This document shows positions 5,474 to 21,207 of a DNA stretch of 61,701 bases, piece by piece. The stretch's first letter is position 1. Every line of letters begins with the position of its first letter. The stretch comes from a virus (Duplodnaviria > Caudoviricetes), in IMG/VR virus record IMGVR_UViG_3300043171_000134, positions 1 to 61,701 of that record; one strand, given 5' to 3'. Under the pieces are notes generated by a model. The model was not told the origin of the DNA. It worked only from the letters and a program-made list of their open reading frames with translations, and made no database searches. Made by a program: the position numbers and the translations under genes.

Positions 5474-5490
5474 CCAGTTTTTACCTAATG

Positions 5491-6072: not shown

Positions 6073-6122
6073 TACCTTGTTACCTTGTTAATTGATTCCC
6101 GACTGAAAGTCGTCGGCACTTC

Positions 6123-6326: not shown

Positions 6327-7461
6327 CAGGTAGCTCCGGCAGCTCGTCCACACTGGCGGCATATGCTTCACGCTTGTCGGAACCGGGAACCAGCACAGGC
6401 TTGCCGCGCGGCTTGTGACAATGCTTCTTCATAATCACATGATCTTCACCGAACGCTTTCTCAAATGCCGGCGCTGTGATCAGTTTCTTGGTGAACATAT
6501 CGGCCACCTTGATCTTGTGCGCTCTCATAGCTTTTTCAGCGTCTTTGGCATCCCGCCATGCACGATTCGAGCGACCTTCGACCATCTTAAAAGGTAAACC
6601 GTCGCCACCAATAATTTCTTTTCCTTGCGCGACCAGTGATGTAACTGATTCCGTTACATCTACGCACCACTTCACGATTTCGGGAACCAGACTCATAGCT
6701 TCTCCGAGTTCGGATTCCCCCATTTCGTTTGGGTTTGTAATCTCCTGCAGCTCATCGACCAGCGCATCCGTAACCATTTCATAACGGGTCTGACACGTTC
6801 CCTTGATCTTGCACCACTGGCAATGCGATCCGGCCTTGAATGGCGCGTCGTCGGTGTCAGCGAGGTCCGCTGCCGGCTCAACAATTTCGTTCGCCCAGGT
6901 GAGCAGTTCTTCGGCGCTAATCTCCCACTCGTCAATCCAGTCAAGGCGCGGCTGGCAGATGCACAGCTTGAACTTTTTGAAGTCGTACAGATGCCCATGC
7001 TCTTGGAACAGCCCGAGTGCGTACAGCTTCAACTGCGGGTTATCTTCGGCATGGATCTGAATGCCCTTGCCATACTTCAAGTCGATCACGACTGCCGTGC
7101 CATCGTTCAGCAGAGCGGCATCGAGTGTGCCGAATCCACCGTCAACCCATGCGTCATAGCTGACCTTCGCTTCGATCAGTTCTTCTTCGCACTCGAATTG
7201 CTCGACGTAATTCAGGAAATACTGAACATGGCCCGCCATTTCTTTGTCGCACTCGAACTCGCCATCAGGATCTTTCTGCCCGATAAAGGCGTCAGCGTTT
7301 TTCTTGTTGATTCGGGCCAGCTCACTGATCCAATGTGCGAACGTGCCTTCGGCGGCATAGACCGATGTGGTATCGGCCATGCCTTCGGTTGCTTTGACGG
7401 AGCCGGGACAGACCAGCCAGCGTTCAGCTGCAGATGGTCCCTTCGGTGAATGTTCGCTCAT
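6313..7461 (-). CDS. DUF2800-like Cas4/PD-(D/E)XK exonuclease
   Basis: PSAAERW..CPGS, AEGT.AH, FGTLD, IDLKYGKG, NPQLKLYALG, CQWC. Confidence 0.9.
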   Translation of the reverse strand: MSEHSPKGPSAAERWLVCPGSVKATEGMADTTSVYAAEGTFAHWISELARINKKNADAFIGQKDPDGEFECDKEMAGHVQYFLNYVEQFECEEELIEAKVSYDAWVDGGFGTLDAALLNDGTAVVIDLKYGKGIQIHAEDNPQLKLYALGLFQEHGHLYDFKKFKLCICQPRLDWIDEWEISAEELLTWANEIVEPAADLADTDDAPFKAGSHCQWCKIKGTCQTRYEMVTDALVDELQEITNPNEMGESELGEAMSLVPEIVKWCVDVTESVTSLVAQGKEIIGGDGLPFKMVEGRSNRAWRDAKDAEKAMRAHKIKVADMFTKKLITAPAFEKAFGEDHVIMKKHCHKPRGKPVLVPGSDKREAYAASVDELPELPDETD

Positions 7462-7850
7462 TACGCATCCTCCACCTGTGCCTTCGCATCATCAATGACA
7501 CGCTGGTATTTCTTCTCACTGAGCTGGCCGAGTGTCGATGCGCCATACGATTTCAGGAGCGATTTTACTGCCGCCTGGTTGATTGTCTCTTGCAGAATTT
7601 TTAGCTCCGCTCGCACATCTGGCAAAGTCAGCTCGGTGTCGTCGCCTTTCTTCTTATCCGTTTTGCCGACTGTGGTTTTCTTGCCCTTCTTCTTCTTCGG
7701 CGTCGGCGTCGGTTCTTCGTCGTCGTCAGGATCTTCGACGGTGGTCGGCCCGGTAGGCACATAGCCGCGCTCGGCTAGTAATGCTTCGAGCGCGGCGGCG
7801 ATTCGCCCAAGATTCGTGTCGATTGATTTGAGATCAGATTCGATGGTCAT
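7461..7850 (-). CDS. Hypothetical protein typical of the DUF2800-DUF2815-polA module
   Basis: Low-complexity linker and helical C-terminal domain (LL..YGA..L..L). Confidence 0.7.
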   Translation of the reverse strand: MTIESDLKSIDTNLGRIAAALEALLAERGYVPTGPTTVEDPDDDEEPTPTPKKKKGKKTTVGKTDKKKGDDTELTLPDVRAELKILQETINQAAVKSLLKSYGASTLGQLSEKKYQRVIDDAKAQVEDA

Positions 7851-8106
7851 AGCGTTCCTCTATAGATATGTGACACTCGGAATCCGTTTTCAGGACGTTC
7901 GTGTCGTAATGAAGGGTACGGCAGCTGCCGTGTTTTAGGTTGACGACCAGAATATGTCCGTGATCCTTGATTGCGTTCGGCATCATGCCGTGGCACTTGG
8001 GATCAATTTTCATGTACTGGTGGCTTTCGTACTGGAATGTGGCGCCACGGTCTAAGCAACCGAGCTTTGAAAGACGCCTGTCGTGCTGGTTCGTGATAAT
8101 TCTCAT
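7834..8106 (-). CDS. Hypothetical protein, first gene of the leftward replication operon
   Basis: GAGG upstream of the ATG; overlaps the next ORF. Confidence 0.65.
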   Translation of the reverse strand: MRIITNQHDRRLSKLGCLDRGATFQYESHQYMKIDPKCHGMMPNAIKDHGHILVVNLKHGSCRTLHYDTNVLKTDSECHISIEERYDHRI

Positions 8107-8149
8107 TTTGTATGCCTCACGTTGTTATCGCATTAACTTGATTGATTGC

Positions 8150-8217
8150 CGGGAGCAGCTGGTCGTCCACCTTGCGGGGGAGTTGCAGTTTTGGATGATT
8201 AAGTCCAGCTGCTCCCG
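8150..8217 (-). promoter_or_regulatory. 5' leader stem-loop of the replication operon
   Basis: Perfect 13-bp stem CGGGAGCAGCTGG/CCAGCTGCTCCCG with an inner GCAA-capped hairpin on the minus strand, directly after the predicted start site. Confidence 0.65.
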
Positions 8218-8225
8218 ACTTCCGA

Positions 8226-8254
8226 AGCGTACCCTTGAAAATGCGGCGGCGCAA
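8226..8254 (-). promoter_or_regulatory. Sigma70-like leftward promoter
   Basis: TTGCGC-17 nt-TACGCT on the minus strand. Confidence 0.6.
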
Positions 8255-8263
8255 GAATACGAT
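8235..8263 (+). promoter_or_regulatory. Sigma70-like rightward promoter
   Basis: TTGAAA-17 nt-TACGAT, overlapping the leftward promoter. Confidence 0.7.
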
Positions 8264-8302
8264 GCCCTTTCTGTATTAAATCCAACACAGGAATACGCGA
8301 TT

Positions 8303-8596
8303 GTGGTAAAGAAACCCCTGACAAAACGTCAAGAAGTACGCTATGACAAGGTTCTGAGCCAAATTCGTGATCGTTTCGGCTCCTACGAGTCCATAGCCCG
8401 AAAGTCATTCATCATTTACGATGAGGAAATCACCGGCAATACGATCCGAGTCTGGTTTTTGGAGCGCCGAATTTCCACCGATTTTTGCTTCATCCTGTAT
8501 GAAATGATGGGCCGGAGCTTTCCCATTTGCGACTTGCTGCCGTGGTTGATTCAGTATTTCGTTGAATTTCATCAACTTCAGGGAGAATCGGAGTGA
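8303..8596 (+). CDS. Cro/YdaS-like HTH regulator (GTG start preferred over 7967)
   Basis: RFGSYESIARK...ITGNTIRVW HTH-like pattern; first gene after the divergent promoters; AGGA upstream. Confidence 0.55.
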   Translation: MVKKPLTKRQEVRYDKVLSQIRDRFGSYESIARKSFIIYDEEITGNTIRVWFLERRISTDFCFILYEMMGRSFPICDLLPWLIQYFVEFHQLQGESE

Positions 8597-8931
8597 TTGG
8601 GTTCAAATTTCTGATTTTAGGGAAAGAAAACAAACCCCTGAATCACGGTACGATCATCGAGAAGGTGACCGAAGGCAAATATCTGTGTCAGTTCACCCGG
8701 ATACCGACCAGTTGCAGGGTGGTTGATGTGACTGAGATTCAGGGCTGGAATTTGTTTCCGACTGACGATGGCATGAATGAGTTCATTGCGGCGCTCGAAC
8801 CGAAGAAGCCGCCAGCTCCACCACCAGCAGATCCACCGAAAGTTCCACCAATAGATCCACCGAAAACGAACGGGAGCAAGCGAAATGCCAAGAAGTCAAA
8901 AGCCAAGAAAAAAGCACAAGCCAAAAAGTAA
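8593..8931 (+). CDS. Hypothetical protein with Pro-rich linker and Lys-rich tail
   Basis: GTGA overlap; PPADPPKVPP linker, KKSKAKKKAQAKK tail. Confidence 0.65.
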   Translation: MIGFKFLILGKENKPLNHGTIIEKVTEGKYLCQFTRIPTSCRVVDVTEIQGWNLFPTDDGMNEFIAALEPKKPPAPPPADPPKVPPIDPPKTNGSKRNAKKSKAKKKAQAKK

Positions 8932-8953
8932 CGGGACCGGAGGACAACCAGCA

Positions 8954-9493
8954 ATGGACAAAAAAGCATACGCCGGCAATGCCCGGTTCATCGAAATCGG
9001 TTCGCCAGGTGTTCCGTTTCGATTCACAGTCAACCTCGATACGCTCGAAGGTCTGCGCTTCGAGGAAAAACTGGAAGTGGTCAAACTGCCAGTGCCGGGA
9101 ACGGGTGTTGGTGACATTCCGCTTGAACATACAGAACAAGTTCAGAGCGCCGGCTGGTCCGTGATACTGCTGATCGGCGGTCATATGAACAATATCGACT
9201 TTCCATCCATCGAACCGGCAATGGCTTGCTACAACGCGATTATGAGCATGATCAACGCTATCGGTGTGCCATTGGTCTGCGGTACGAAGCTGCTGCCGCC
9301 TAAACCGCCCCCGGCTATCGTCGGCGCTGATGGCAAGGCTATGGATGCGGTCAAAGCGGCAGTCGAGTCTGCCGGCATCGAAACTGGCGAGGCCGGCGAG
9401 GATCTGCTGGACCCGGTGATAGACGATGAGTCGCCGATGTTGAGCGATGAAGAACTGGAAGCACTGACAGCTCCGGATGAAGATCCGAAATGA
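8954..9493 (+). CDS. Hypothetical protein
   Basis: GGAGG RBS before ATG 8954; acidic tail. Confidence 0.65.
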   Translation: MDKKAYAGNARFIEIGSPGVPFRFTVNLDTLEGLRFEEKLEVVKLPVPGTGVGDIPLEHTEQVQSAGWSVILLIGGHMNNIDFPSIEPAMACYNAIMSMINAIGVPLVCGTKLLPPKPPPAIVGADGKAMDAVKAAVESAGIETGEAGEDLLDPVIDDESPMLSDEELEALTAPDEDPK

Positions 9494-9660
9494 GATTCAC
9501 CTGGCGTTTGTTTATGTGCGTGATGGGCGACCACAGCCCTAGCCACGAATGGAAGGATATTTTCGCCGGCAAGCAGATTCGCGAGTGTGTCAACTGCGGC
9601 AAAATCGTGGAAGAACGGGCCGGCAGACCTATCGAGAAGTCTGGGAGATTGAAGCGATGA
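9490..9660 (+). CDS. 56-aa zinc-finger-like protein
   Basis: Hand translation with C....H and CVNCG; ATGA overlaps at both ends. Confidence 0.55.
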   Translation: MRFTWRLFMCVMGDHSPSHEWKDIFAGKQIRECVNCGKIVEERAGRPIEKSGRLKR

Positions 9661-9875
9661 CTGTCCGAGTAAAGAAGTCAGATCCACCGGAGACTACCGA
9701 AATACTGGCCGACTCCATCGTCCGTATCAGCGCGGCACTGACCAAACTGGACGCGACAGGCGTGAATCGAAAAGCAATCGTGATCCTGATTCAAGCCGCG
9801 ACCAAATTATCACGGCGAGATATTGAGGCTGTGCTCGACGCGCAGAAACGACTGGCTGCGTGGTATTGCCGGTGA
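9657..9875 (+). CDS. Hypothetical protein
   Basis: ATGA overlap; helical 72 aa. Confidence 0.6.
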   Translation: MTVRVKKSDPPETTEILADSIVRISAALTKLDATGVNRKAIVILIQAATKLSRRDIEAVLDAQKRLAAWYCR

Positions 9876-10108
9876 CCGGGCAGACGTATGATTACAAGCC
9901 CAAGTTTCCGGAGGTATTGAAAATGAGTGAAGATAAGATCCCGTATGCGGAGCTGGACAGACCGATAGATATCCCGCTTCTGGAAGACAACACGACAGTT
10001 TCGATGGGGAATATGCACTGGCACTTCCATCGAGAAAAGCCGTTCACATGGTTGCAGATCAAGCTATTGAGAATTTGTCTTGGCCTCACAGTCTCGAAAA
10101 ACGGCTAA
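9872..10108 (+). CDS. Hypothetical protein
   Basis: GTGA overlap; start uncertain. Confidence 0.45.
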   Translation: MTGQTYDYKPKFPEVLKMSEDKIPYAELDRPIDIPLLEDNTTVSMGNMHWHFHREKPFTWLQIKLLRICLGLTVSKNG

Positions 10109-10128
10109 AATCACAAAGGCATACATCA

Positions 10129-10338
10129 ATGAACAGCTACAAATTTGAAGTCGAATGTCCGTATTGCCATTTCAAGCAAACCATCGTCACCGATGTGGTC
10201 AACAATCCGATGAGCAACCATTCCGAGATCATCAACTGTGATGCCGAGGAAGGTGGTTGCGATCTGGAATTTGCTATCAAGTGGCAGCTCTATCCGCGCT
10301 ATCAAACCTTCACGCTGAATCCGCTCAAAGTCGCCTGA
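10129..10338 (+). CDS. Small zinc-ribbon protein
   Basis: CPYC...CDAEEGGC; immediately upstream of the primase gene. Confidence 0.65.
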   Translation: MNSYKFEVECPYCHFKQTIVTDVVNNPMSNHSEIINCDAEEGGCDLEFAIKWQLYPRYQTFTLNPLKVA

Positions 10339-10341
10339 CCA

Positions 10342-13128
10342 GTGGCGCGGATCTTCCGCATTTCAACCGGGCCATCCCGGTTGTCAACCCGCTTGAAGCG
10401 GCGCAAGGTGTCGTGGGCGAAGCTCGCGACTAAGCTGCAAACCTATCACCAGATCGACCACACCTACGAGCAGTACATGGCGTTCGATCGCGAGCGGCAG
10501 GCGCAGCTCAAGGACGTAGGCTATTACATAGGCGGCTGGTTCAAGGGATCGAAGCGGCTACAGTCTGAAATGACCCGGCGCTCCCTGATCACATTGGACG
10601 CTGACCATTTGGATTCGTGGGATATCGACGCCGTGATCGACGCCTATAAGGATTATGAGTTCGTCGCGCATTCGACCATGAAGCACAGCCCTGACACCCC
10701 GCGGCTGCGCATCGTATTTCCGCTCCACCAGGACATTAAGCCAGCTCAGTATGAGCCGGCATCCCGCGCGCTGGCGAACTGGCTCGGCATGGACTGTTAT
10801 GACGACACCACATTCCAGCCGGCGCGCATCATGTTCTGGCCGGCCGTCACTTCGGATGGTGAGATCTGGAAGCACCACAATGAGGGCGAACTGGTCAACC
10901 CTGAAATGCTGCTAGAAATGTACGACGACTGGCAGGACTTCGGCGAGTGGCCGCACTCCAAACGCGTCGATAAGCTGCGGCCGGCAGCTCGGGAAGCGGA
11001 AGACCCGCTCACCAAACCCGGCATCATTGGCGCATTCAACCGCACCTACGACATTCACGCTGCAATCGCGCAGTTCGAGCTACCTTATGAAACGACCGAC
11101 TTTGATAACCGTTATCGACCCTTTAACGCTACGGGGCCATCGGGCGCTGTTGTATATGACGATGTATTCCTCTACTCACACCATGAATCTGATGTGGTTG
11201 GACACCAGAATGTCAATGCGTGGGATCTCGTCCGCATTCACAAGTTTGCGGATCTCGATGCCAACACGGACGAAGACGAAACGCCGATGATGAAGCGGCC
11301 ATCATCGAAGCAGATGATGGCGCTGGCGATGAACGTACCGGAAGTGGCGTATGAGCTGCGCTACGGTGAGCTGTCCGACCTCGATGCAAGCGAGGCCCGA
11401 CCCTCGGCATCCCCTACTCCAACAAAGGCAAACCCATCGAAAGACGAAACCGGAAAGTCGGACCTCACATTCAAGAGCCTACTCGGCGAAATCTCTGCGA
11501 TCAACGTCGATGCGACAAACCTTTATGACGTATGCCAATCCGAAATCCCCCGAATCGCTGCTGCGCGGCTGGACCCGCAGGAGGATTCCATACTTGCCGG
11601 TGCGCTGCGCGAAAAATATCCCGCTCCGAAACCGACCAAAAGCAGCCTTGAAAAATCCATCGACATCACCGGCAAGCGACTGACCGCAGTTCTCGCAGAC
11701 GGTGAAGGCGGGATCGCTGATATTGAGCAGGAACTTGTGCAGGCTGTTCTCGATGATCACTTCGAAGGCGGGAAGACCATCAAGCGAATCGGACGCAAAT
11801 ACTGGACATATGAACGTGGTCTTTGGGCCATCACCAGTGACGAACGGATCAAAGGATGTACCGTCAAAACGCTCTCCCGACTTCGGGTGGAACGTCCCGA
11901 CGATGTGCTGCAACTGGTGGCTGCGGTGGGCGAGAGTAAAACCAGCACGCTCACCAGGGCGCTGTTTGATATGGAATGTAGCATCCTTGCGGAACGGGAG
12001 AAGCGGGACGACCCGCTCGGCCTCATGCGGACATTTCCGCTGCCAATAATCAACTGTCTGAACTGTGAAGTGCATTTCAATTACAAAGGGAAGATGAAAC
12101 GCAAGCAGCATAACCCGGACAATTTCTTCACGATACGGGTGGACACTGAATACGATCCGGATGCCGAATGCCCTGAGTGGGACCGCTTCAACGAGATAAT
12201 CTGGTCCGAGTCCAGTGACCCCAAAGATATGCAGCGGCATCTGGAAGAACTCGGAGGCTATGTGATCCAAATGTCCCGCTGGCTGAAAACGTGGGTGCTG
12301 TTCCACGGTCCGAAAGACACCGGCAAATCGACCGTCGCCGAAGTCCTGAATCAAATGCTCGGCTCCGCTTATCTCGCACAGGATTTCGGCAAATTCAACG
12401 AGAAGAACAGATCCACTTTCGCTGAATCCAATCTGATCGGCAAGCTGGCTATTGTGGACGACGACTACAGTCGCACGGCATCCCTGCCGGACGGATTCAT
12501 CAAGAAGGTCAGCGAGGAAAAATCCATGACGGCCGATATCAAATGGGGCGAATCGCTGAAATTTGTATCGCGGGCGTTACCCATGATCCTCGCGAACCAT
12601 TTTCCGAGGACCGCAGATATCTCCGATGCCCTGAACGAGCGCGCACTGGTATTCCCGTTTTACCATCGCATTGCCGGCGCCGACAGATCAGATAAACGCC
12701 GCGCCAGGATGATGGACGAACTGCCCGGCATACTGGTGCGATTCATCGCCGGCGTCCGTCGCCTGCGAAAGCGCGGCGCTTGGGATATCCCGCTCGATTG
12801 CGGCGTCGCCCACGGTGAATGGGAGTTCCATGCGAACCCGCTCAACGCATTTATGAAAGAGTGCATCTTCCTCGATCCGGAAAATCAGGTCGAACCGAAG
12901 CTGGCGCTGGAAGCGTACAAGCACTGGCTGGCCGAGAACGAAACGACCAAAGGCTCCATTCACGGACTCGGGCGCAATGAGCTGTTCACGCGCCTCGATC
13001 AGCTGCTCGGCGAACGGAGTTCTGTCGGCGGTCACCGAAAAGCGTGGAAAGGGTGGCGTTTGGTAGATCCGAGATTTGCGGACGTTGAAATTATTTCGGA
13101 TTCCGAATGGGACGATTCCGATGATTAG
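10342..13128 (+). CDS. Primase-polymerase fused to a D5/P4-type SF3 helicase
   Basis: N-terminal LDAD, HST.KH...PRLRIVFPL, D.TT....RIMFWP; C-terminal Walker A GPKDTGKST, Walker B IVDDD, motif C LAN. Confidence 0.9.
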   Translation: MARIFRISTGPSRLSTRLKRRKVSWAKLATKLQTYHQIDHTYEQYMAFDRERQAQLKDVGYYIGGWFKGSKRLQSEMTRRSLITLDADHLDSWDIDAVIDAYKDYEFVAHSTMKHSPDTPRLRIVFPLHQDIKPAQYEPASRALANWLGMDCYDDTTFQPARIMFWPAVTSDGEIWKHHNEGELVNPEMLLEMYDDWQDFGEWPHSKRVDKLRPAAREAEDPLTKPGIIGAFNRTYDIHAAIAQFELPYETTDFDNRYRPFNATGPSGAVVYDDVFLYSHHESDVVGHQNVNAWDLVRIHKFADLDANTDEDETPMMKRPSSKQMMALAMNVPEVAYELRYGELSDLDASEARPSASPTPTKANPSKDETGKSDLTFKSLLGEISAINVDATNLYDVCQSEIPRIAAARLDPQEDSILAGALREKYPAPKPTKSSLEKSIDITGKRLTAVLADGEGGIADIEQELVQAVLDDHFEGGKTIKRIGRKYWTYERGLWAITSDERIKGCTVKTLSRLRVERPDDVLQLVAAVGESKTSTLTRALFDMECSILAEREKRDDPLGLMRTFPLPIINCLNCEVHFNYKGKMKRKQHNPDNFFTIRVDTEYDPDAECPEWDRFNEIIWSESSDPKDMQRHLEELGGYVIQMSRWLKTWVLFHGPKDTGKSTVAEVLNQMLGSAYLAQDFGKFNEKNRSTFAESNLIGKLAIVDDDYSRTASLPDGFIKKVSEEKSMTADIKWGESLKFVSRALPMILANHFPRTADISDALNERALVFPFYHRIAGADRSDKRRARMMDELPGILVRFIAGVRRLRKRGAWDIPLDCGVAHGEWEFHANPLNAFMKECIFLDPENQVEPKLALEAYKHWLAENETTKGSIHGLGRNELFTRLDQLLGERSSVGGHRKAWKGWRLVDPRFADVEIISDSEWDDSDD

Positions 13129-13209
13129 CCGGCGAAATGTGTGGTTTTGGCGTTATTTTCCGAAAAACTTGGGGAATTAGCACCGGCGACAGCCCCCGGT
13201 ACGCCGAAA

Positions 13210-13331
13210 GTGATGTTTGTGAAGTTCTTCTCCTACTTATATTTATCGCGGGAGAATTTTTTTATTAAAAAGAGAAGTAGTACACATTCCCGTATATAAA
13301 AGAAATAGGGAAAAAACATCACAAACATCAT
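13210..13331. repeat. 45-bp imperfect inverted repeat around an AT-rich core; candidate replication origin
   Basis: Arms 13210-13254 and 13287-13331 match at 31/45 positions ungapped by hand count, with core TCACAAACATCA; lies between convergent genes just after the primase-helicase. Confidence 0.65.
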
Positions 13332-13351
13332 CCCCGGCACTTTCCGAAAAA

Positions 13352-13561
13352 TCAGGTGTACAGCACCAGCCAGTCCCGAAGTCGCATCTTTGACGCTTTC
13401 AGTTCGGCGAGCAGAGCGCTCCATTCGGCAACCGTCCATTCGCGTTGACCATTTGCAGCCAGCTCGAGTATTTCATCCGAGATCCAATCGTCCCGGCAAA
13501 TGGCGCGTCGGACCAACAGATGCCCGTAGTCGGACAACTGCTGGTCAGGACACCCAATCAT
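13352..13561 (-). CDS. Hypothetical protein
   Basis: ATGA overlap. Confidence 0.5.
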   Translation of the reverse strand: MIGCPDQQLSDYGHLLVRRAICRDDWISDEILELAANGQREWTVAEWSALLAELKASKMRLRDWLVLYT

Positions 13562-13752
13562 GTCAGTCTCGGCTGACGGCACTTGGGGAACAGGTGAGGC
13601 GCGTCAGGGTCGTGTTCTGGTTCGTGTCCGCTACCGCCGCATCGGCCGCAGAAGGCGAGTGCCTTTCCGACCCATACCATTCCGTCACCGGTACATCGAG
13701 TGCAGGGGTCGTCACAGATATCTCTCTTGTCGGGCTGTGAGTAAGATCGCAT
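13558..13752 (-). CDS. DnaJ-type zinc-finger protein
   Basis: CTRCTGDG and CGRCGGSG (two CxxCxGxG motifs). Confidence 0.6.
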   Translation of the reverse strand: MRSYSQPDKRDICDDPCTRCTGDGMVWVGKALAFCGRCGGSGHEPEHDPDAPHLFPKCRQPRLT

Positions 13753-13753
13753 T

Positions 13754-14185
13754 TCAGCTCCCCCTGGGTGACGCGTAGTCGCCGGCAATCGCCGGGTCTA
13801 GCTTGCCGTAGAAGTCGATCTCTTTCAGCCGGCATTGACCGTCGCACTCCGAACACCAGTGACCCTTGTCGCATGTGTCGTGGACGATGAAGTCCTGATG
13901 CCACGGACTGAATTCGACCATTGCTTCAACGCCAATCTCGCTGCCGCCGCAACTGTCGCAGACATAATCAATCGGCGTTTTTGTCGGCTGCTTGCGTTTC
14001 CCGAGGAATTCCAATCGAGCTTCGGACACGATGAACTCAGGGACAGGATCACCGTCGTCGTAGAACCATTCATCGGACGATTCCCAATCCAGTCCGGTGC
14101 GTCCCATTGCGTCGTAAACTTGCTGGTATGCGTCGTCGAGCTGCGTCGTGTCTAGGTCAATGCAAACTACTATTCTTGTGCTCAT
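13754..14185 (-). CDS. Hypothetical protein with zinc ribbon
   Basis: CDSCG...WCSEC; AAGGA RBS. Confidence 0.7.
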   Translation of the reverse strand: MSTRIVVCIDLDTTQLDDAYQQVYDAMGRTGLDWESSDEWFYDDGDPVPEFIVSEARLEFLGKRKQPTKTPIDYVCDSCGGSEIGVEAMVEFSPWHQDFIVHDTCDKGHWCSECDGQCRLKEIDFYGKLDPAIAGDYASPRGS

Positions 14186-14207
14186 GTCGGGATTTCCTTT
14201 AGCCAGG

Positions 14208-14525
14208 TTAAACTTCTACGTCGATTACTTCCCAATTCGTGTCCGTCGATCCGTTGTCTCCGATGATCGTCACGAATTGCGGTTCGCCCCAAAAGATCAC
14301 AGCCAGCTTGCCGCAAAATCCCGGCCCATCTGAAATGTAATCTTCGCGTACCATGATTTCGTCACAGGTCAAATACTTGATGCGATCCAGAATGTAATCG
14401 TCATTCGGATATCGAGCGTTTAATGCGACTCCGATTGCTATCAGTTCCAGTCCGTTTGCCGGCCGAATTTCGCCGGGCAGGATGGTTCCTGCATCTGATT
14501 TTGATAGTCCTAGTGGGTCATTCAT
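14208..14525 (-). CDS. Hypothetical early protein
   Basis: DYISDGPGFCG motif; ATGA overlap. Confidence 0.65.
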   Translation of the reverse strand: MNDPLGLSKSDAGTILPGEIRPANGLELIAIGVALNARYPNDDYILDRIKYLTCDEIMVREDYISDGPGFCGKLAVIFWGEPQFVTIIGDNGSTDTNWEVIDVEV

Positions 14526-14812
14526 GCCCTGTCCCTCTCTTTGATTATTTCGATGATAATGTCGTCCAGCAATTCGCCAGTCTGTGAATGGTCTGCACGG
14601 TTGAAGTCGTGGCATACCGTGAAAATTTCGCCTTCGGTGAGCTGCGTACCGTCATTAAAATGTGACGCACTGTTTTGAATTTCTTCTACTGAATAACCAA
14701 TGTGTGCCGGAAAATCACGGCGAAAGTTTTCCTGTGTGTGGATGCTATCTTCTAATGCTTGTGCCAGATTCGGCATTGGGTCGTCGCCTAGTGTGTTTCG
14801 TGGGTCATTCAT
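14522..14812 (-). CDS. Hypothetical acidic early protein
   Basis: GGAG RBS; operon packing. Confidence 0.6.
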   Translation of the reverse strand: MNDPRNTLGDDPMPNLAQALEDSIHTQENFRRDFPAHIGYSVEEIQNSASHFNDGTQLTEGEIFTVCHDFNRADHSQTGELLDDIIIEIIKERDRA

Positions 14813-14975
14813 GCTGGTTCTCCGTGGGTTTGGGATGATAATTTTCCAGAATCTTTTCGCTATCATCTATCGCTTGTTGGGCTTGCTTATTTATCTCTCG
14901 CATAATGTCTTCGTATTCAAAGCGAGAAATAACACCCTGCAACCAAAGGATGCGTGTGTATTTTTCAAAGTTCAT
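14805..14975 (-). CDS. 56-aa hypothetical protein
   Basis: Hand translation MNFEKYTRILWLQG...; GGGAG RBS, ATGA overlap. Confidence 0.55.
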   Translation of the reverse strand: MNFEKYTRILWLQGVISRFEYEDIMREINKQAQQAIDDSEKILENYHPKPTENQHE

Positions 14976-15253
14976 GCTGTCTCCCCTTTCATGTGTGAAT
15001 CGTTTTCGTTAGTCCAGTCGAGCTGTGCTTGGATGCTTTCGATTGAATCGCAGATGTGCTGGTGCAGATCGGCCCGCTTATAACTGCGCGGCGCCGATAG
15101 ACGTTTTCTAACGTGCGCTGTCACTGATCCGCGTGAAAATTTCAGCCCCTTCATTTCAAGGCCGATAGCGTATTTCCATTGCAATAGCTGAAACATGGGA
15201 ACGGTAATCAGTTCCCCCTGGTGGTTGTAAATTCGGACATTCATACCATTCAT
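14972..15253 (-). CDS. Hypothetical early protein
   Basis: LEMKGLKFSRGS motif; ATGA overlap. Confidence 0.65.
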   Translation of the reverse strand: MNGMNVRIYNHQGELITVPMFQLLQWKYAIGLEMKGLKFSRGSVTAHVRKRLSAPRSYKRADLHQHICDSIESIQAQLDWTNENDSHMKGETA

Positions 15254-15477
15254 CTGCAAGTCTCCAAATTGCCAACGTGAACATTGCGTTGCGTACCATC
15301 ATCGAATCTGATCGTTGCCAGTTTCGTTTCCGGCCCGAGCTGCACAAAGTCGATGATGCTTCCCCTTGCGAATGGCCCGAATGCTGTCGGTGGTTCGTCG
15401 CCTGTGAATTGTCCAGTGTTGCGGCAATGCGCCGACGATAGTCGTACCCTGTCTCCGATTTCTCTAGGTGCTGTCAT
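15250..15477 (-). CDS. SH3-like hypothetical protein
   Basis: IGDRVRL...IRFDDG...V...NLE. Confidence 0.6.
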   Translation of the reverse strand: MTAPREIGDRVRLSSAHCRNTGQFTGDEPPTAFGPFARGSIIDFVQLGPETKLATIRFDDGTQRNVHVGNLETCR

Positions 15478-15659
15478 TTTTTCGATTCCTCTGGTGTGTA
15501 TAGTTTGATGCCGCCCTGCCTTGTGAATTTCATCCCTGATTCGACAATGTTGCGCGGCAATTTTCGTGATGCTGTGCATTTATTCAATGCCCGAGTAATG
15601 TGAAACCGGAAACGTCCTGTCTCCGGCTGCCGATAAACGGCGCAATAACGCCGCGCCAT
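15474..15659 (-). CDS. Basic hypothetical protein
   Basis: TAATG and ATGA overlaps with its neighbours. Confidence 0.5.
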   Translation of the reverse strand: MARRYCAVYRQPETGRFRFHITRALNKCTASRKLPRNIVESGMKFTRQGGIKLYTPEESKK

Positions 15660-16225
15660 TAAATGACACCGGCGCGGCGTAATCCTTCGGCAAAATCCGG
15701 AACATCATCAAGCCGGCCGGCTGGCGCGAAATGATTGTGGCCCGATGTGCTGCCGCCATAATCCTTGCGCCCATCACAAGTGCGGAACATGATTTCGTGA
15801 CCCGGCCCGAGACACGACTGCGACACCTGAACGTACAGACTGTCGGTGTGTAGTGTGATTTCTCCGGGTACTGCAATGCCGCCCTTGTTGCTGCGAATGT
15901 CGTATTCGCTTCCTTCTAAGCCGATCACCTTTGCCAATCTTTTGAGCTGGCGCGCGGCCCGGTGGTGAAACTTGAGCTTGCGCGCATCACCCTCGCGACT
16001 GTATGCGTCGATTGGAACTGATACGAGTTCGGCTAATGTATCGGCCTGGCGCACTTCGTCCTGCTTGATGTGTTGCATTGCTTCATCGCAATCGAATCGA
16101 ATGCAATTCAGCAAGTCCCACACTTCTCCAACGTCTGTATATTCGGCCGCTTCGCATTTGTCGTGAAAGACTGCGATTTTGTCCGAGATAATGTGCAGAA
16201 TTTCTGCGTCTGTGTTGTCAGTCAT
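15659..16225 (-). CDS. Hypothetical early protein
   Basis: 188-aa ORF with RSNKGGIAVPGEITLH motif. Confidence 0.75.
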   Translation of the reverse strand: MTDNTDAEILHIISDKIAVFHDKCEAAEYTDVGEVWDLLNCIRFDCDEAMQHIKQDEVRQADTLAELVSVPIDAYSREGDARKLKFHHRAARQLKRLAKVIGLEGSEYDIRSNKGGIAVPGEITLHTDSLYVQVSQSCLGPGHEIMFRTCDGRKDYGGSTSGHNHFAPAGRLDDVPDFAEGLRRAGVI

Positions 16226-16413
16226 AGTCCTATGCCTTTGAAGTTGTAATTTCCGGCGCGGATCGCGTCGTCGTCTGCGTCAACTGCGGTCTTGTATTCC
16301 GGCCGCTTGCGTTCCCTGCTTTTGCAGTCCATACAAATTATGTCGGTGTTAAACATCGACATAATTGTGCTGCGGGTTTCCTTAAAACAACGGTCGCAAA
16401 TAGTCATGGTCAC
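16222..16413 (-). CDS. Small zinc-finger protein
   Basis: CDRC...MSMFNTDIICMDC; ATGA/GTGA overlaps. Confidence 0.7.
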   Translation of the reverse strand: MTMTICDRCFKETRSTIMSMFNTDIICMDCKSRERKRPEYKTAVDADDDAIRAGNYNFKGIGL

Positions 16414-16892
16414 AGTCTCCCTGCTTTTTCGGCGTCGAATACTTTCAGTGCCGTGGTGAATTGAATTCCTGTAGCTTTTTGGATGTGTCTCACCCGTTCA
16501 ATGTCAACGCGGCATAACAGCACCCCGCACCCCCTCACACCTTCGCCATTAGGCCCGATGGTCAAGTGCTGACTTCGCGACTTCGCCCGAATGCCGTAAT
16601 AGTGTGCGGTGTATCCGCCGGCCCGGTACGTCATTGCACTCGCCCAGGTGTGTATCGCTATGCCGAGAATGCCGCAAGCTGTATCAATTTTAATCCAGTC
16701 ATGCGTTTCCGGTAGTAAGCTGCGGCCGATCAATTCGGCATCGGTGCTTGCGCCATTTTCTGCGCGTTTGCACACTATCTCGAATGCGACCCCGTTGGCG
16801 TCTGCCAATGCTGCCAGCTTGTGAAAATCCAGCCCGTTTGCCTTGCGATAATTCGCCAGCCGGACTGCCTCGCCTAACCTCATATTGCTCAT
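16410..16892 (-). CDS. Hypothetical early protein
   Basis: 160-aa ORF in a tightly packed operon. Confidence 0.65.
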   Translation of the reverse strand: MSNMRLGEAVRLANYRKANGLDFHKLAALADANGVAFEIVCKRAENGASTDAELIGRSLLPETHDWIKIDTACGILGIAIHTWASAMTYRAGGYTAHYYGIRAKSRSQHLTIGPNGEGVRGCGVLLCRVDIERVRHIQKATGIQFTTALKVFDAEKAGRL

Positions 16893-17569
16893 GGTGTACC
16901 CCTTGCTATTTTGTCAACTTCTAACCGTTTGCGTCCCTTCGCTTTGAACCCGATCAAGTAGTCCCTTCTCGACAGGTAGCACAAGCCACAATTGGCGCAT
17001 GTGACTCGGCTTGTATTCTCTGCGGGGCATTGGACAATTTTCCGGCCGCGCGGCGTCTGCGTCACCTTGCCGGCATCCAACGGGATCACCACTACCGTGG
17101 GTATGCCGGAGTCTGCAAGTGTGTCCGCATGTGCCGCGTTATCGGCCGATAAATTGACGGTAAATCCGGCCGCATTCGCGGCCCGAATCGCGGCCCGATT
17201 TCGCCGCTTCCCAATGCTCTTATGTGTGTATGTGAATCCGCGCCGGCCGCGATTGGCTTTAACAAGTCTCGCCAGCTCGGTCGCGTTTATGTGGTCGCCA
17301 GGGCCGGGTAAATCGCCGGCTTGATTGTGCCGCCATAGCATCTGGCCCGGTATTGTCCTGATATGCCGGCAGAGCATATCCAGTGATATGCCGCGCGCGC
17401 CGCTGCTAACGCGTTGCCAATGCCAGCCTATTGGCCCGCCCTCGGCATAGCATCCGTGACCCCGTAACGCACAGTCAGGCGGGCAAGTGTCGGCGCTTGT
17501 GGTGGTGACGGGTATCGGCCCCGTTTTACGGTTAGCCGATACCCTGCTGAAATGGTAAAACGTCGCCAT
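16889..17569 (-). CDS. Cys-rich GP88-like (radical-SAM-like) phage protein
   Basis: N.KTG, TCPPDC......CYA, R....GD, YTH, NLS, CPA......TCANCGLC; TAATG overlap supports a start at 17569. Confidence 0.65.
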   Translation of the reverse strand: MATFYHFSRVSANRKTGPIPVTTTSADTCPPDCALRGHGCYAEGGPIGWHWQRVSSGARGISLDMLCRHIRTIPGQMLWRHNQAGDLPGPGDHINATELARLVKANRGRRGFTYTHKSIGKRRNRAAIRAANAAGFTVNLSADNAAHADTLADSGIPTVVVIPLDAGKVTQTPRGRKIVQCPAENTSRVTCANCGLCYLSRRDYLIGFKAKGRKRLEVDKIARGTP

Positions 17570-17931
17570 TACGGCATAACGTCCGCAAGCGTCTGATTGT
17601 TGAAATATAGATCCCGTTCGACTTTCAAGCCGGCATAGCCGCGTATTTCTTCCAATTGACTTAGCAGCACATAACCGAGTTCGGCGCACTGGTCGTCACC
17701 TAAATTGCAGAATGCGAATAAATGCCAGTCCTGCGCCTTGTCCGGTGTGCAGGGTTCACCGTTCACGGAATCCAACGGTGTGCCGGTCACGACGTACCAT
17801 GTAGCACTCGCCCACGGTGTGAATAGTTTCACAACAATGGGCTGGTCGTTGCCGCTTCGATTTTGATGCGCTAAGAATTCTTGATCAGCCGCGTATAGTT
17901 TCGCGGCTATTGCTTTCGTGATTAGTTTCAC
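17569..17931 (-). CDS. DUF2958-like protein
   Basis: VVKLFTPW..ATWY, ELGYV.L.QLE, VERDLYF. Confidence 0.8.
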   Translation of the reverse strand: MKLITKAIAAKLYAADQEFLAHQNRSGNDQPIVVKLFTPWASATWYVVTGTPLDSVNGEPCTPDKAQDWHLFAFCNLGDDQCAELGYVLLSQLEEIRGYAGLKVERDLYFNNQTLADVMP

Positions 17932-18266
17932 GGTGTTTTCTCCTTGTAGTGGGGGACTAAATCGGGTCTGAGCGTGTGCAGGGTCGCCAGTAAGCTGCGT
18001 TGATAGCCTGACCGGGGTTTGTATCCGCTAACGTATGAATTGCCGGCGTCGTCCAATGCTGCGGAAATATTGCAGCACTTGAATTCGTATGAGCCGCGTG
18101 ACCTGTTGACCAGTGCCGGCAACGTGCGCCGGCATAGTTCGGCCTTATTCACAGCCAGCCCGTTATTTTGAGCGTCGAGCAAAACGGCATAAGCCGAACA
18201 GATCGCAATCTGTTCGGCCTTGCTCCATGCCTTTGGGCGCGTCACAAAATGCCTCGGCTGGCGCAA
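17928..18266 (-). CDS. Stand-alone homologue of the N-terminal domain of some HNH/NO VEIN-type nucleases (start uncertain)
   Basis: WS..E......AY..L...NKAE...RS..S.EFK..NISA.L...G....GYKP. Confidence 0.6.
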   Translation of the reverse strand: MRQPRHFVTRPKAWSKAEQIAICSAYAVLLDAQNNGLAVNKAELCRRTLPALVNRSRGSYEFKCCNISAALDDAGNSYVSGYKPRSGYQRSLLATLHTLRPDLVPHYKEKTP

Positions 18267-18724
18267 CTGGTCGCAGTCCTGCCGCCGATAATGATGTGAT
18301 CCAATAACCGAATGTCGATAACTTCTAGCGCCGCTTTGATGCGCTTCGTTATGCGTTCGTCTGCCTGTGATGGTTCGGCGACTCCGGACGGGTGGTTATG
18401 CGCCAAAATTACGGCCGCCGCGTTGCAGAATAATGCCTCTTTAACAATCTCTCGCGGATAAACCGAAGTCCCGTCAATAGTGCCGCGAAATAGCTCACTG
18501 AATTTCAGGACACGGTGACGGTTATCAAGGTAAATACAGCAGAATAATTCGTGCGGTAAATGCGCTAGTTTATTGCGCAAGAATGATTCTGTGTCGGCTG
18601 GCGAACGGATCGCCACACCCACTATGGGGTCGCAGTATTCGCTAGCAGTCTCACAAATTGTCGTGCGGTCTGCGATTGTGTAGCGGCCGTTTTTCTTCCT
18701 TCTGTATAGCTTGGTTCTTTTCAT
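18242..18724 (-). CDS. radC: RadC-like JAB/MPN domain protein
   Basis: E.F...YLD, F.GTID...VYPREIVKEAL, HNHPSG...PS.AD, LLDHIIIG (intact JAMM motif). Confidence 0.93.
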   Translation of the reverse strand: MKRTKLYRRKKNGRYTIADRTTICETASEYCDPIVGVAIRSPADTESFLRNKLAHLPHELFCCIYLDNRHRVLKFSELFRGTIDGTSVYPREIVKEALFCNAAAVILAHNHPSGVAEPSQADERITKRIKAALEVIDIRLLDHIIIGGRTATSCASRGIL

Positions 18725-18742
18725 TGGGGTTTGCCTCTGGTG

Positions 18743-18821
18743 GTGATACAGGGCAGCACTAGCCGGCCGGAGGTGCGCAATGTTGGGCGCAATTATTCCG
18801 GCTAGTGCTGCGGTCTATCAC
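18743..18821. promoter_or_regulatory. Long stem-loop in the radC leader
   Basis: 24-nt arms GTGATACAGGGCAGCACTAGCCGG / CCGGCTAGTGCTGCGGTCTATCAC with an inner TGCGC/GCGCA hairpin. Confidence 0.7.
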
Positions 18822-18973
18822 CTCTCTTTGTGGCGCGTGAATATCTGCGATTTCCGGGTGTGGCCGCAGCAAGTAAAGCCGGGCGAGCTGTACATCTGCT
18901 TGCCGGCGCGGCGTTTCTCCGCGTACTTGCCGAGGGGTCTGCTTTTCGCTACGGGATTGTTGCGGCGTTTCAT
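18818..18973 (-). CDS. 51-aa basic protein
   Basis: Hand translation MKRRNNPVAKSRPLGKY...; GGAG RBS, ATGA overlap. Confidence 0.5.
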   Translation of the reverse strand: MKRRNNPVAKSRPLGKYAEKRRAGKQMYSSPGFTCCGHTRKSQIFTRHKER

Positions 18974-19203
18974 GCTGTCTCCGTGGGTTCGGGATTGATC
19001 ACCATTACGCGGCGCAGCTTGCCGTATCTAATATTGACGGTTAGTCCGTCGTTGTCGGCTTGCGGTTTGTTGATCGGTTTGCCTTCGTAAGGGTGTCCGA
19101 AGTTTTGGATAATGAAATCACTTCCGGCTGTCCATGCCGCCATAACTTTGGCGCGGCTTGAATAGTCCCGGCCATATGCCGGCGTTAGTGTGAGATAACT
19201 CAC
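18970..19203 (-). CDS. Hypothetical early phage protein
   Basis: LTLTPAYGRDY motif; GTGA overlap. Confidence 0.7.
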   Translation of the reverse strand: MSYLTLTPAYGRDYSSRAKVMAAWTAGSDFIIQNFGHPYEGKPINKPQADNDGLTVNIRYGKLRRVMVINPEPTETA

Positions 19204-19379
19204 TGTCGTTTCCGGTAAATATTCAAGCCGATAATTGCGTCTGTTCCTTCAATCTTTTGATTGCCGGAACTGGTCGCGATTATTATCGTTTTGCCTGACT
19301 TGCTCGGCCCGTGTTCCTTCGATAAATCGACGGTGATGGTTAGCTTGTTTCCTGCGGTCTTAATGTCTGCATTGATCAT
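19200..19379 (-). CDS. 59-aa protein, first gene of the early operon
   Basis: Hand translation MINADIKTAGNKLTITVDLSKEHGPSKSGKTIIIATSSGN...GLNIY; GAGGA RBS. Confidence 0.7.
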   Translation of the reverse strand: MINADIKTAGNKLTITVDLSKEHGPSKSGKTIIIATSSGNQKIEGTDAIIGLNIYRKRQ

Positions 19380-20134
19380 GGTGAGATTTCCTCTTTTGGG
19401 GGGTCACTACGGTATTGCCTGCCATCCGTTCGGCTGTCCTGCGGCCTTGTGCTGCGTCTGAGAATTCCGAGAATCGGTAAATCCGAGATTAACGCGTTTT
19501 CCATGATTCAGGCCGTTTCCAGTGGGGGCAGGGACTAGGGCCAATAGTATCGGAAAGCGGCGCAATCCGCAGCACTTAATTACACCAGCCGGCAACGGGT
19601 CGCAATTCACGGCGCCCAGGTGCATCGAATTACCAGCCGGCGCAGCAATTGGCACGGCCTGGCGTTTGGCCGCACCTCGATGCAAGCCGGCGCAACCGGT
19701 GACAACTTCAGACAATCGCAGCACTCCGAAGAACACGTTCGGATCTCCACACAGGACAAGGGGATCTCGTCGGCCGGCCGGATCTCGGTGGCCGGGCTGG
19801 TGGTGATGCGTGTCCAAGTGCAGCTGCGTGGCGCGGCCTAAGTGGGGGGCGTTTACCGGTCGCCACCTCGACTGGCTGCCGGCGGCCCTCGATGCCGGCG
19901 CCGGGGGCCAAAACCCGATCCCATGAATGAAAAAGAGTCTCATCGAATCTGAAAAACGTGGCCCGGATTGCTCGACCCATGCAAACGCCGCGTACAGTAC
20001 CTACCCCTATCTCTGAGTTACCAGTTTTTCTGCTCTTAGCAAAATATTTTTCGGAAAATCAGTAACATAAGGCACTCTTTGACACCTAATCAGAGCTGCA
20101 CCCTTGACACTACACACATCATATGGGTGAAATT

Positions 20135-20248
20135 GGCCGGACCCGCACTAGATGTATGCCTCTGGTGCTGATTTCGCCTCGCCCAGAACAGATTTTAGTG
20201 AGGCAATCACGGTCATATTCTGCCCGTCCGCAAGGGCGGGCATTTTTC
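20135..20248 (+). ncRNA. Candidate small regulatory RNA: three-way junction plus intrinsic terminator
   Basis: P1 GGCCG/CGGTC, P2 GCACTAGA/TCTGGTGC, P3 TGATT..GCCTCGC/GTGAGGC-AATCA; G-U pairs favour the plus strand; TTGACA upstream; complementary to several RBS regions. Confidence 0.6.
20221..20248 (+). terminator. Rho-independent terminator
   Basis: TGCCCGTCC-GCAA-GGGCGGGCA followed by TTTTT. Confidence 0.85.
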
Positions 20249-20278
20249 TGTCGAGTGAGGCGCTGCAAGGGGTTCAAG

Positions 20279-20449
20279 ATGGCTATACCAGGCATTACGC
20301 CGAAGCGAGGTCGCCGGCCACGCATTCAGAAAGTGTCGATTCGTTCGGCCGCTCACAATCTGGCGGGGTCGGAGAAGCCGTATCCGGTCTATCAATTTTC
20401 GCGCAGAATTTTTCTCGAGCGGCCCGGTCATAATCCTTTCAAGCCATGA
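20279..20449 (+). CDS. 56-aa basic protein preceding terS
   Basis: AAGGGG RBS; ATGA overlap with terS. Confidence 0.5.
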   Translation: MAIPGITPKRGRRPRIQKVSIRSAAHNLAGSEKPYPVYQFSRRIFLERPGHNPFKP

Positions 20450-21207
20450 AGACCACGAAACCTGATCACGTTTTGCATCACGCGAGGGCGCGAGGCCACC
20501 GTAAAGCGAAGCGAACACAGGTTGCCCTGGTGATTGATGTAGAGAACATGACGCCGCTGCGTTGGCAGGGGGTGATCGAGGCGACGGCGCACGGTAAGAA
20601 CCGCAAGGAAGCGGCCAAAGAAGCAGGAATTTCAAAGCGCACGTTGGACTCGTATTTAATTTCCAACATATCAGCGTACTCGCAGTTGCGTGAAGCTCAT
20701 TTGCTGCACTTACGGCGCGAATGGCCTTCCGAGCGAGCTGAAGAATTTCTGATCTTGATCGCTCGCGGCAGAACCATGCAGCGAGCTGCGGACAAGCTCG
20801 ACATTGGGAAGCGGTCATTGGGTCAGTTGTATGCACTGTTTTTGAACGACAAGGTGTACCGGCGTATGTATGACGAGGCCCGAGAAATGCAGGCCGAGAC
20901 TTTTGTTGACGACATACTCGATATCAGCGACGACTCAGGTCGTGACCGGCAGGAGAACGGGAAGATCAATCACGAAGTCGTCAACAGGTCGAAGATTCGC
21001 ATTGACACACGGAAGTGGATTATGGGAGCGATGGTTCACAAGCGATTTGGTGACAGGAAGCAACTCGAACATTCAGGCGAGATCAATCTAAACCACGCCG
21101 CCTTGCTCTCCGGAGGGCGTCGTCGCTTAGAAAAGCTGAATGAGGAACGCAAGGCAAGGAAGCCCGCAACGATTGATAACATTACTGGCACAGAGGTAGC
21201 GGCATGA
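20446..21207 (+). CDS. terS: Terminase small subunit with duplicated N-terminal HTH
   Basis: Y..ARE.QAE...DDI..I.DD...RSKIRIDTRKW pattern; upstream of terL. Confidence 0.8.
   Translation: MKTTKPDHVLHHARARGHRKAKRTQVALVIDVENMTPLRWQGVIEATAHGKNRKEAAKEAGISKRTLDSYLISNISAYSQLREAHLLHLRREWPSERAEEFLILIARGRTMQRAADKLDIGKRSLGQLYALFLNDKVYRRMYDEAREMQAETFVDDILDISDDSGRDRQENGKINHEVVNRSKIRIDTRKWIMGAMVHKRFGDRKQLEHSGEINLNHAALLSGGRRRLEKLNEERKARKPATIDNITGTEVAA

Follow-up and report, generated by a model that had tools for sequence, protein, structure and literature searches.

The late leader of phage lambda (the PR'-tR' transcript, or '6S RNA') ends at a promoter-proximal terminator, and antitermination by Q gives late read-through; no pairing of this leader with the ribosome-binding sites (RBSs) of early genes is known to us. 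The put RNA of HK022 and the boxA/boxB elements of lambda nut are likewise leader elements acting in cis, which modify RNA polymerase to pass terminators. Other small structured phage RNAs act by base pairing: the CI RNA of P4 derives from the 5' part of an operon, pairs with repeated complementary sites and terminates its own operon, and c4, which has its role in the immunity of temperate phages, targets the ant mRNA of its own operon. The c4 RNA of phages P1 and P7 has been described as a small structured RNA whose loops pair around the RBS, blocking translation (PMC12197685). In virulent Pseudomonas phages, short RNAs of the 5' untranslated region (5'UTR) that arise by premature termination are reported to be common, the layout being a promoter followed by a terminator, with either an abundant RNA of <250 nt or a long mRNA sharing a common 5' end, and they are reported without an assigned function (PMC10914365). 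Here we analysed an element at positions 20135-20248 of the 61,701-nt virus record IMGVR_UViG_3300043171_000134 (hereafter the window, meaning this whole stretch of DNA), in which a predicted three-way-junction RNA followed by an intrinsic terminator occupies the divergent gap separating the early from the late block. The late operon probably has this conserved, structured element as its 5' leader, and the terminator of the element would gate the packaging and structural genes via read-through.

As in the lambda late leader, an intrinsic terminator precedes all the late genes, which would need read-through, and the default product would be a short terminated leader; the window differs in having no Q-like family among the approximately 60 open reading frames (ORFs) scanned and in that its leader folds as a three-way junction with covarying stems and invariant loops. 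Unlike those of c4, its candidate targets are spread over both strands and at least three transcription units, at distances of 1.4-15 kb, and no match to the Rfam c4 family was obtained. Unlike P4 CI, its candidate sites are RBSs of other operons, and the corresponding Rfam family was also unmatched. The short RNAs of the Pseudomonas phages were found by transcript sequencing, whereas the present element is known from DNA alone, with covariation and a candidate seed-target relation. A limited literature search turned up no account of a phage leader masking a private class of RBSs, which is a thin basis for claiming that none exists.

Fold and conservation of the leader RNA

The RNA 20135-20248 had a minimum free energy of -49.8 kcal/mol against a shuffle mean of -33.4 (z = -4.76), and 0/200 dinucleotide shuffles were as stable. 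In the predicted fold (Table 1), the loop of the P2 hairpin had an unpaired probability of 0.91 in the ensemble while that of the 3' strand of P2 was 0.00, and opening this hairpin would cost 10.1 kcal/mol. The terminator hairpin, which is separate from the junction and joined to it by a short linker of 6-8 nt (6 nt in this fold), was predicted to be closed (unpaired probability 0.02), and in the list of sites from scans of 1-60000 it ranked first for number of stem pairs combined with G+C. Two additional interactions, namely an L2-L3 loop-loop kissing and a helix of the 5' region with the terminator as an antiterminator, were rejected (each 3-5 bp by eye and lost in relatives).

Rfam 15 at gathering thresholds gave 0 matches in the whole window, including c4 and the P4 CI/IsrK-type phage antisense RNAs, and relaxing the search to E values up to 10 on 20080-20290 returned 8 chance-level matches (8-22 bits against thresholds of 35-80) with no phage regulatory RNA among them. 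The fold, far stabler than its shuffles, agreed with the original prediction for this DNA. That prediction had described a three-way junction closed by a GCAA terminator at the head of the late block; the junction, the terminator and the position all held, whereas the terminator comes after the junction and does not close it. The point it had overlooked is that the element appears as the 5' leader of the late operon, with the terminator lying between the sole promoter-like site and the first late gene.

Copies of the element were sought with the terminase small subunit (TerS), the small ORF that precedes TerS, two DNA patterns and a covariance model. Seven distinct copies were obtained in related uncultured phage contigs, namely those of the window, L053 (on one contig with L001 and L031), L009, L033 (as L003), L010 (as L002, L032 and L054), L045 (as L034) and L046; the copy in L011 was identical to that of L010, and the copy in L012 to that of L045. 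A homologue of the small ORF was found directly downstream of the element in 7/7 copies. When the seven copies were fitted to the model, a procedure that favours the structure, 94.8% of 252 cells were paired vs 36-42% with the partners slid, and 9/36 pairs were compensatory, a count reached in 0/500 shuffles. An independent MAFFT/RNAalifold alignment of six copies gave 6 compensatory pairs out of 34. Broken down by helix, compensatory pairs made up 3/8 in P2 and 4/11 in P3, plus 1/3 in the apical part of P3, and there were 0 in helix P1, whose pairs were invariant or broken once. Several G-U pairs identified the plus strand as that of the RNA. The terminator stem was kept in all seven copies, with U-G/C-G swaps, and the U tract in the relatives was just 4-5 long and interrupted.

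A covariance-model search of 38 sources recovered just the six copies already known (L033 was not among these sources), the three other matches having E = 0.33-0.59. Six pattern matches in unrelated bacterial genomes were judged to be due to chance and not instances of the model.

The P2 stem varied compensatorily while the 9-mer GUAUGCCUC stayed fixed, and the sole variable base of the loop was the first one (window, U; L010, C; L046, A). Besides the two invariant stretches listed in Table 1, invariance or near-invariance extended to CCAGAACA in the P3 apex, to the -35 CTTGAC and to a block over the -10 region. The element, with its covarying stems and without an Rfam match, is a real, new structured RNA family, and this new family is of a known sort, namely a promoter-proximal, terminator-ended late leader. 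CCAGAACA also recurs in the terminator hairpin loop of the otherwise unrelated leader of distant L036 (approximately 4150-4215; the 8-mer at L036:4175), and in L036 and the window element it may represent a shared recognition motif.

Promoter, terminator and late transcription

The promoter-like site just upstream of the element (Table 1) would imply a transcription start at approximately 20139-41, and its -35 CTTGAC and the block TG.GTG.AATTG were invariant in 6 aligned relatives. Farther upstream, 19995-20085 holds conserved non-coding blocks, of which CAGTACCTACCCCTATCTCTGAG was recognisable even in distant L013; an A/T-rich block there ends in a first TTGACAC, a second TTGACAC 25 nt farther on supplies the -35 of the leader promoter, and in L033 approximately 50 nt are inserted between the two copies.

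The end of the terminator (20248) is separated from the first late start codon (20279) by 30 nt, and the linker preceding the terminator is variable among relatives. Because of this variability and the short spaces around the terminator, no separate late promoter was seen, and with no room for a second promoter, late transcription should have to read through the terminator, so that gating in cis is the safest function for the element. We grade this function as probable and no higher, since where transcription starts, whether it terminates in vivo and whether read-through is regulated are deduced from the sequence. In the proposed mechanism, transcription would begin at the promoter-like site 20104-20133, the nascent RNA would fold into the three-way junction, and most polymerases would stop at the terminator, freeing an RNA of approximately 105-110 nt. 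The late genes would then be produced solely by terminator read-through, and the conserved junction and loops would be the likely handle for a factor relieving termination. A leaky terminator is one option for the read-through, the U tracts being short (4-5 U). For a pairing of the loop in cis with the read-through 5'UTR, that region offers only 5-6 nt of complementarity (GAGGC in the window; AGGCA in both L033 and L010; GGCAUA in both L046 and L012). In the distant small-ORF relatives L013, L016, L027/28, L036, L037 and L043, the leaders are unrelated but likewise finish with a terminator-like hairpin; L018-L026 have no gap before the small ORF, and L035 has a plain promoter-like stretch only.

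Several observations weigh against such a gate. The -10 is a poor match, having no A at position 2, for which reason a consensus promoter scan omits the site. Inspection revealed no alternative antiterminator pairing, no dedicated alternative-fold search having been made. Among the approximately 60 ORFs scanned with Pfam and PHROGs, there were no Q-, N-, sigma- or RNA-polymerase-like families; several small ORFs belong to no family at all, so a novel antitermination factor is possible. The late block contains few other terminator-like sites, and a purely cis-acting element would leave the complementarity between its loop and RBSs, described below, as a coincidence.

The scarcity of late terminators bears in particular on a special form of the gate, a processive-antitermination RNA, in which the junction would bind polymerase or a small phage protein and confer terminator resistance across the 41-kb late operon, with the invariant loops as the contact surfaces for the protein or polymerase. 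This would fit the location of the element at the very start of a long operon and immediately before a terminator, the invariance of its single-stranded motifs within covarying stems, the reappearance of CCAGAACA in the leader hairpin loop of L036, and the small arginine-rich protein encoded by the first downstream gene. The element also resembles HK022 put and lambda nut in joining a conserved linear motif to a hairpin with a conserved loop and a variable stem, but those systems use two hairpins or a single boxB in place of a three-way junction. With few further strong terminators in the late block, processive antitermination is not obviously needed; furthermore, no known antiterminator family was matched among the ORFs scanned, the small ORF is present in relatives without any leader (L018-L026 and L035), and the RBS complementarity would be unexplained. 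We accordingly regard processive antitermination as unlikely.

A riboswitch-like sensor, in which the three-way junction would bind a metabolite or ion and set termination, appears highly improbable. A conserved junction and loops with a terminator within 6 nt are the usual riboswitch layout; however, no Rfam family was obtained when E values up to 10 were allowed (best matches 8-22 bits, gathering scores 35-80), no competing antiterminator helix was found by inspection, and helix P1 is distinct from the terminator, each being predicted to be stable.

Complementarity of the invariant loop to early start regions

The original prediction had listed five sites complementary to the P2 region of the RNA, and all five were confirmed, in position and in length (those of ORF 10129, radC, ORF 8106, the SET gene and ORF 16225 in Table 1), each lying 2-8 nt 5' of an ATG, with 1 nt between the ORF 10129 site and its ATG. 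The three sites that pair with the loop gave loop-only duplexes of -18.9 kcal/mol for ORF 10129 (with AGGCATACAT inside the 11-nt match), -16.2 kcal/mol for ORF 8106 and -13.1 kcal/mol for the SET gene (SET domain E = 6.6e-9). The start of ORF 10129 is backed by an alignment to PHROG 6504 beginning at residue 3. The radC match is mostly with the closed 3' strand of P2, and the loop-only duplex at the weak sixth site, before ORF 15477, was just -5.2 kcal/mol. The AGGCATA at 16231-16237 is kept as coding sequence in L010 and lost in L053, which has no upstream ORF. That all targets are the first genes of transcription units was considered and rejected, as ORF 10129 follows a 61-aa ORF (9923-10108) and radC follows two small conserved ORFs; no promoter common to the target sites was seen.

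Inverted repeats occur close to several of these start regions. Approximately 30 nt upstream of that of ORF 8106, in the divergent gap at 8.1-8.6 kb, 8151-8216 (minus strand) contains a 12-bp inverted repeat, GGGAGCAGCTGG / CCAGCTGCTCCC. A long terminator-like hairpin (5406-5475, minus strand; -36 kcal/mol, followed by T6) between the genes for the single-stranded DNA-binding protein (SSB) and the SET-domain protein abuts the AGGCATAC start region. Approximately 10 nt upstream of the radC start region lies a perfect hairpin of 14 bp (18753-18811, minus strand), the 86-nt stretch containing it having -37.8 kcal/mol, whose stem is of other sequence but still paired in L010, L009 and L046; it lacks a U tract and may therefore serve in processing or stabilisation.

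We assessed, in a comparison that is post hoc, whether the complementarity exceeds chance. The five longest matches of the 114-nt RNA to the 62 start regions gave a sum of 51, which was reached by 0.05% of 4000 random genome windows and by 0 of 600 dinucleotide shuffles (maximum 46), and the antisense strand gave 8, 8, 8, 8, 8. Only three of these five matches fall in P2, the others being those of the terminator stem with the ORF 17569 start region (10 nt) and of 20209-17 with ORF 34470 (9 nt). The loop 10-mer by itself matched 4/65 start regions by a 7-mer and 3/65 by an 8-mer. At least 4 matches by 7-mer and at least 3 by 8-mer were attained by 0.45% and 0.077%, respectively, of all genome 10-mers, by 4.2% and 0.48% of the 1882 CCTC-containing 10-mers, and by 1.1% and 0.17% of 20000 random N7CCT 10-mers; the genome 10-mers reaching these levels were nearly all antisense to canonical sites. 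Non-start sense windows had a mean of 0.32 matches, with at least 4 in 0/5000 trials. The p for enrichment of contiguous matches against the shuffled, anti-Shine-Dalgarno-conditioned and non-start controls was about 0.002-0.01; by this measure the seed was commoner at start codons than in the controls, contrary to the refuting outcome that the original prediction had named. In contrast, the duplex-energy test was not significant, since the best-five sum of -113 kcal/mol was equalled by 9.9% of 2921 random 29-mers (p about 0.1).

This non-significant energy would fit a chance complementarity, with the element only a terminator-flanked structural spacer, or a stand-alone RNA with host targets. 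The strong covariation and the invariant loops, however, point to a specific function, and together with the contiguous-match tests (about 0.002-0.01) they make either version very unlikely.

Matches of at least 7 nt to 20151-20167 were found in 6/26 early vs 1/36 late start regions (Fisher p = 0.018). AGGCATA was present in 4/62 start regions, tied third among 7-mers (TAGGAGA and AGGAGAA had 6 each), and the late genes have canonical AGGAG-type sites. The loop complement AGGCAUAC is a recurrent non-canonical motif at these start codons and, judged by its distribution, is a second, private RBS class of the early and replication genes. The earlier view that this core is not the ordinary Shine-Dalgarno was thereby supported, with the qualification that the motif still shares AGG with it.

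The terminated leader could also be a trans-acting small RNA, a role compatible with the cis gate, in which the loop GUAUGCCUC would pair with (G)AGGCAUAC(A) at RBSs and block initiation. It would target ORF 8106, ORF 10129 and the SET gene, with radC as a less certain addition, and the block, imposed once the late promoter fires, would constitute an RNA-based early-to-late switch. That the released leader acts in this way on AGGCAUAC-type RBSs is plausible, although we advance it tentatively. In its favour, the loop is predicted to be accessible (0.91 unpaired) and is invariant although its stem covaries, AGGCATA is the most recurrent non-canonical 7-mer of start regions, the matches exceed the genome-window, shuffle, anti-Shine-Dalgarno-conditioned and non-start controls, and they are enriched in early over late genes (6/26 vs 1/36, p = 0.018), the late sites being of the AGGAG type. 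Furthermore, the radC site of L010, AGGCATACG, forms a 9-nt match that includes a G facing the C found as the first loop base in L010, and element-bearing loci (129.9 kb) contain 20 instances of AGGCAWA with a following ATG vs 0 in loci without the element (178.8 kb), a contrast that counts as a single event because the element-bearing loci are one clade.

On the other side, the duplex energy is unremarkable (9.9% of 2921 controls), the motif shares AGG with the ordinary Shine-Dalgarno in a post hoc test, two of the five longest matches lie outside P2, and the radC and 15477 matches would require the melting of P2 (10.1 kcal/mol). L046 has kept the loop, yet 0 start regions in its 9 kb of early genes have a match of at least 7 nt, and its radC site pairs over 4 nt. 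The site at 16231-37 is coding sequence and is lost in L053. Across relatives, the radC site pairs over 11 nt in the window and L053, 9 in L010, 7 in L009 and 4 in L046; relatives whose P2 stem differs retain the upstream CACCAG of radC, but it no longer pairs there. The three best targets could be compared solely in L053, which is too close (83-98% nucleotide identity; these sites all kept), as the contigs of L046, L010 and L009 stop short of the replication module that contains these three loop-type targets; searches for relatives carrying that module, made with a primase query, a primase alignment and a DNA polymerase query, yielded nothing beyond this near relative, L046 and L054, the latter two lacking the module.

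The co-conservation of seed and targets that the original prediction had named as a check was mixed, the radC site pairing in L053, L010 and L009 over at least 7 nt and in L046 over 4 nt, and the site at 16231-37 being absent from L053. Its broader claim, that one small RNA silences the early genes, retains an accessible, invariant loop that is complementary, beyond chance by contiguous matches, to an RBS motif of early genes, and is weakened by the energy test and by L046. Its alternative of a repressor-free immunity received no backing, as no integrase or repressor family was present among the approximately 60 ORFs scanned (PHROGs, Pfam). A dual-function RNA, at once the cis gate of the 41-kb late operon and a multi-target anti-RBS regulator of the (G)AGGCAUAC class in several operons, is put forward as a possibility on which we would not yet rely.

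Genomic setting and implications

The features discussed are collected in Table 1. The 61.7-kb record has 52.8% G+C, and no tRNA genes were found in the whole window. The leftward replication operon comprises a 90-aa ORF, an exonuclease, a Gp2.5-like SSB, the SET-domain protein, a DNA polymerase, endonucleases and a helicase. The terminase large subunit (TerL) proteins of the nearest cultured phages are at most 49% identical, and these phages are thus remote relatives; phage records gave no blastn match to 19900-20500. The runs whose DNA contains the locus are labelled marine sediment metagenome, no RNA run is listed for it, and the reads of 4 DNA runs on 5300-20300 reveal relatives.

Table 1. 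Coordinates of the leader RNA, its candidate targets and the surrounding blocks in the window.
Feature	Position	Strand	Evidence or remarks
Promoter-like site	20104-20133	+	TTGACA (20104-09), 18-nt spacer, TGAAAT (20128-33)
Leader RNA, predicted three-way junction with intrinsic terminator (model R1)	20135-20248	+	Fold z, covariation, G-U pairs
Helix P1	20135-39/20210-14	+	Predicted fold
P2 hairpin	stem 20145-52/20161-68, loop 20153-60	+	Predicted fold; loop UGUAUGCC (8 nt)
P3 arm	20169-20209	+	Internal loop; apical region with conserved CCAGAACA (20183-90)
Invariant CCGGACCCGC	20137-20146	+	P1 3' half, junction J1/2 and first two P2 bases; identical in 7/7 copies
Invariant 9-mer GUAUGCCUC	20154-62	+	Same in all 7 copies
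Intrinsic terminator	20221-20248	+	Hairpin 20221-20242, 9-bp stem (7 G-C), GCAA loop, T5
Candidate target, ORF 10129 (69 aa, before primase-helicase)	10117-10127	+	AGGCATACATC; 11-nt match to 20151-61
Candidate target, RadC-like JAB protein (ATG 18724)	18732-18742	-	CACCAGAGGCA; 11 nt, extended 15/16
Candidate target, ORF 8106 (first of leftward replication operon)	8109-8118	-	GAGGCATACA; 10-nt match to 20153-62
Candidate target, SET-domain gene (5017-5394; ATG 5394)	5397-5404	-	AGGCATAC; 8-nt match
Doubtful target, ORF 16225	16231-16237	-	AGGCATA; 7 nt; coding 3' end of upstream ORF 16222-16407
Weak candidate target, ORF 15477 (new sixth match)	15488-15496	-	CACCAGAGG; 9 nt, with closed P2 3' strand
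First late gene, 56-aa basic ORF	20279-20449	+	Stop overlaps TerS start
TerS, opens packaging/structural block	20446-21207	+	PHROG 1482 E = 1.7e-19; Pfam Sf6_terminase E = 1.6e-18
Leftward replication operon	8106 to 181	-	ORF lists and family searches
Rightward block	~8.6 to 13.1 kb	+	Primase-helicase (10342-13128) last; 69-aa ORF at 10129 before it
Leftward early block	~19.4 to 13.75 kb	-	RadC (18242-18724), DUF7227, DUF2958
Rightward late block	20279 to end	+	56-aa ORF, TerS, TerL, portal, major head protein, large DarB-like virion proteins

The 56-aa ORF that opens the late block is arginine-rich, with RGRRPR at its N-terminus and a conserved C-terminal YPVYQFSRRIFLERPGHNPF. Its comparison with L001 showed 4/6 differences to be synonymous, and the packaging module opens with a homologue of it in 22 metagenome and 14 viral loci. 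No matches to Pfam, PHROG or Atlas were obtained for it, and it may be an unrecognised terminase accessory or a DNA- or RNA-binding protein. In some relatives, an extra gene of 183 aa lies between the small ORF and TerS (L003 1158-1709; also L010 and L004), and the element is then located approximately 900 nt upstream of TerS instead of approximately 200 nt.

Elsewhere in the late block, 42931-48717 and 54397-58554 encode very large proteins of 1928 and 1385 aa, for which the PHROG matches are of DarB-like antirestriction and helicase types. On the early side, the 178-aa ORF at 19407-19943 (minus strand) is G+C-rich, of low complexity and without a family match; it showed 87% protein identity to the close relative vs 92% nucleotide identity for the 6.2-kb aligned block around it, a tandem repeat is present in this region of L003, and the ORF may be non-coding. 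Small conserved ORFs that are easily lost to length filters were noted at 9923-10108 (plus strand, 61 aa), 18818-18973 (minus strand, 51 aa) and 18970-19203 (minus strand, 77 aa); the 51-aa product is very basic with a CC..H stretch, and none of the three had a Pfam- or PHROG-type family match.

Short terminated RNAs after phage promoters have now been seen in many virulent phages, none reported to have an assigned function (PMC10914365). The family described here offers a covariation-supported structure, a fixed position at the early/late switch point and a falsifiable hypothesis of one 9-nt loop and one RBS motif. Should the trans model fail, the element would still be a new cis-regulatory leader without a known antiterminator family hit among the scanned ORFs. 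Should it be true, the phage would time its programme by a private RBS motif on early genes that is later masked by a leader-derived RNA, and if the dual-function reading as a whole is correct, the firing of the late promoter would shut off early and replication protein synthesis without a protein repressor, constituting an RNA-only switch in a virulent-type phage.

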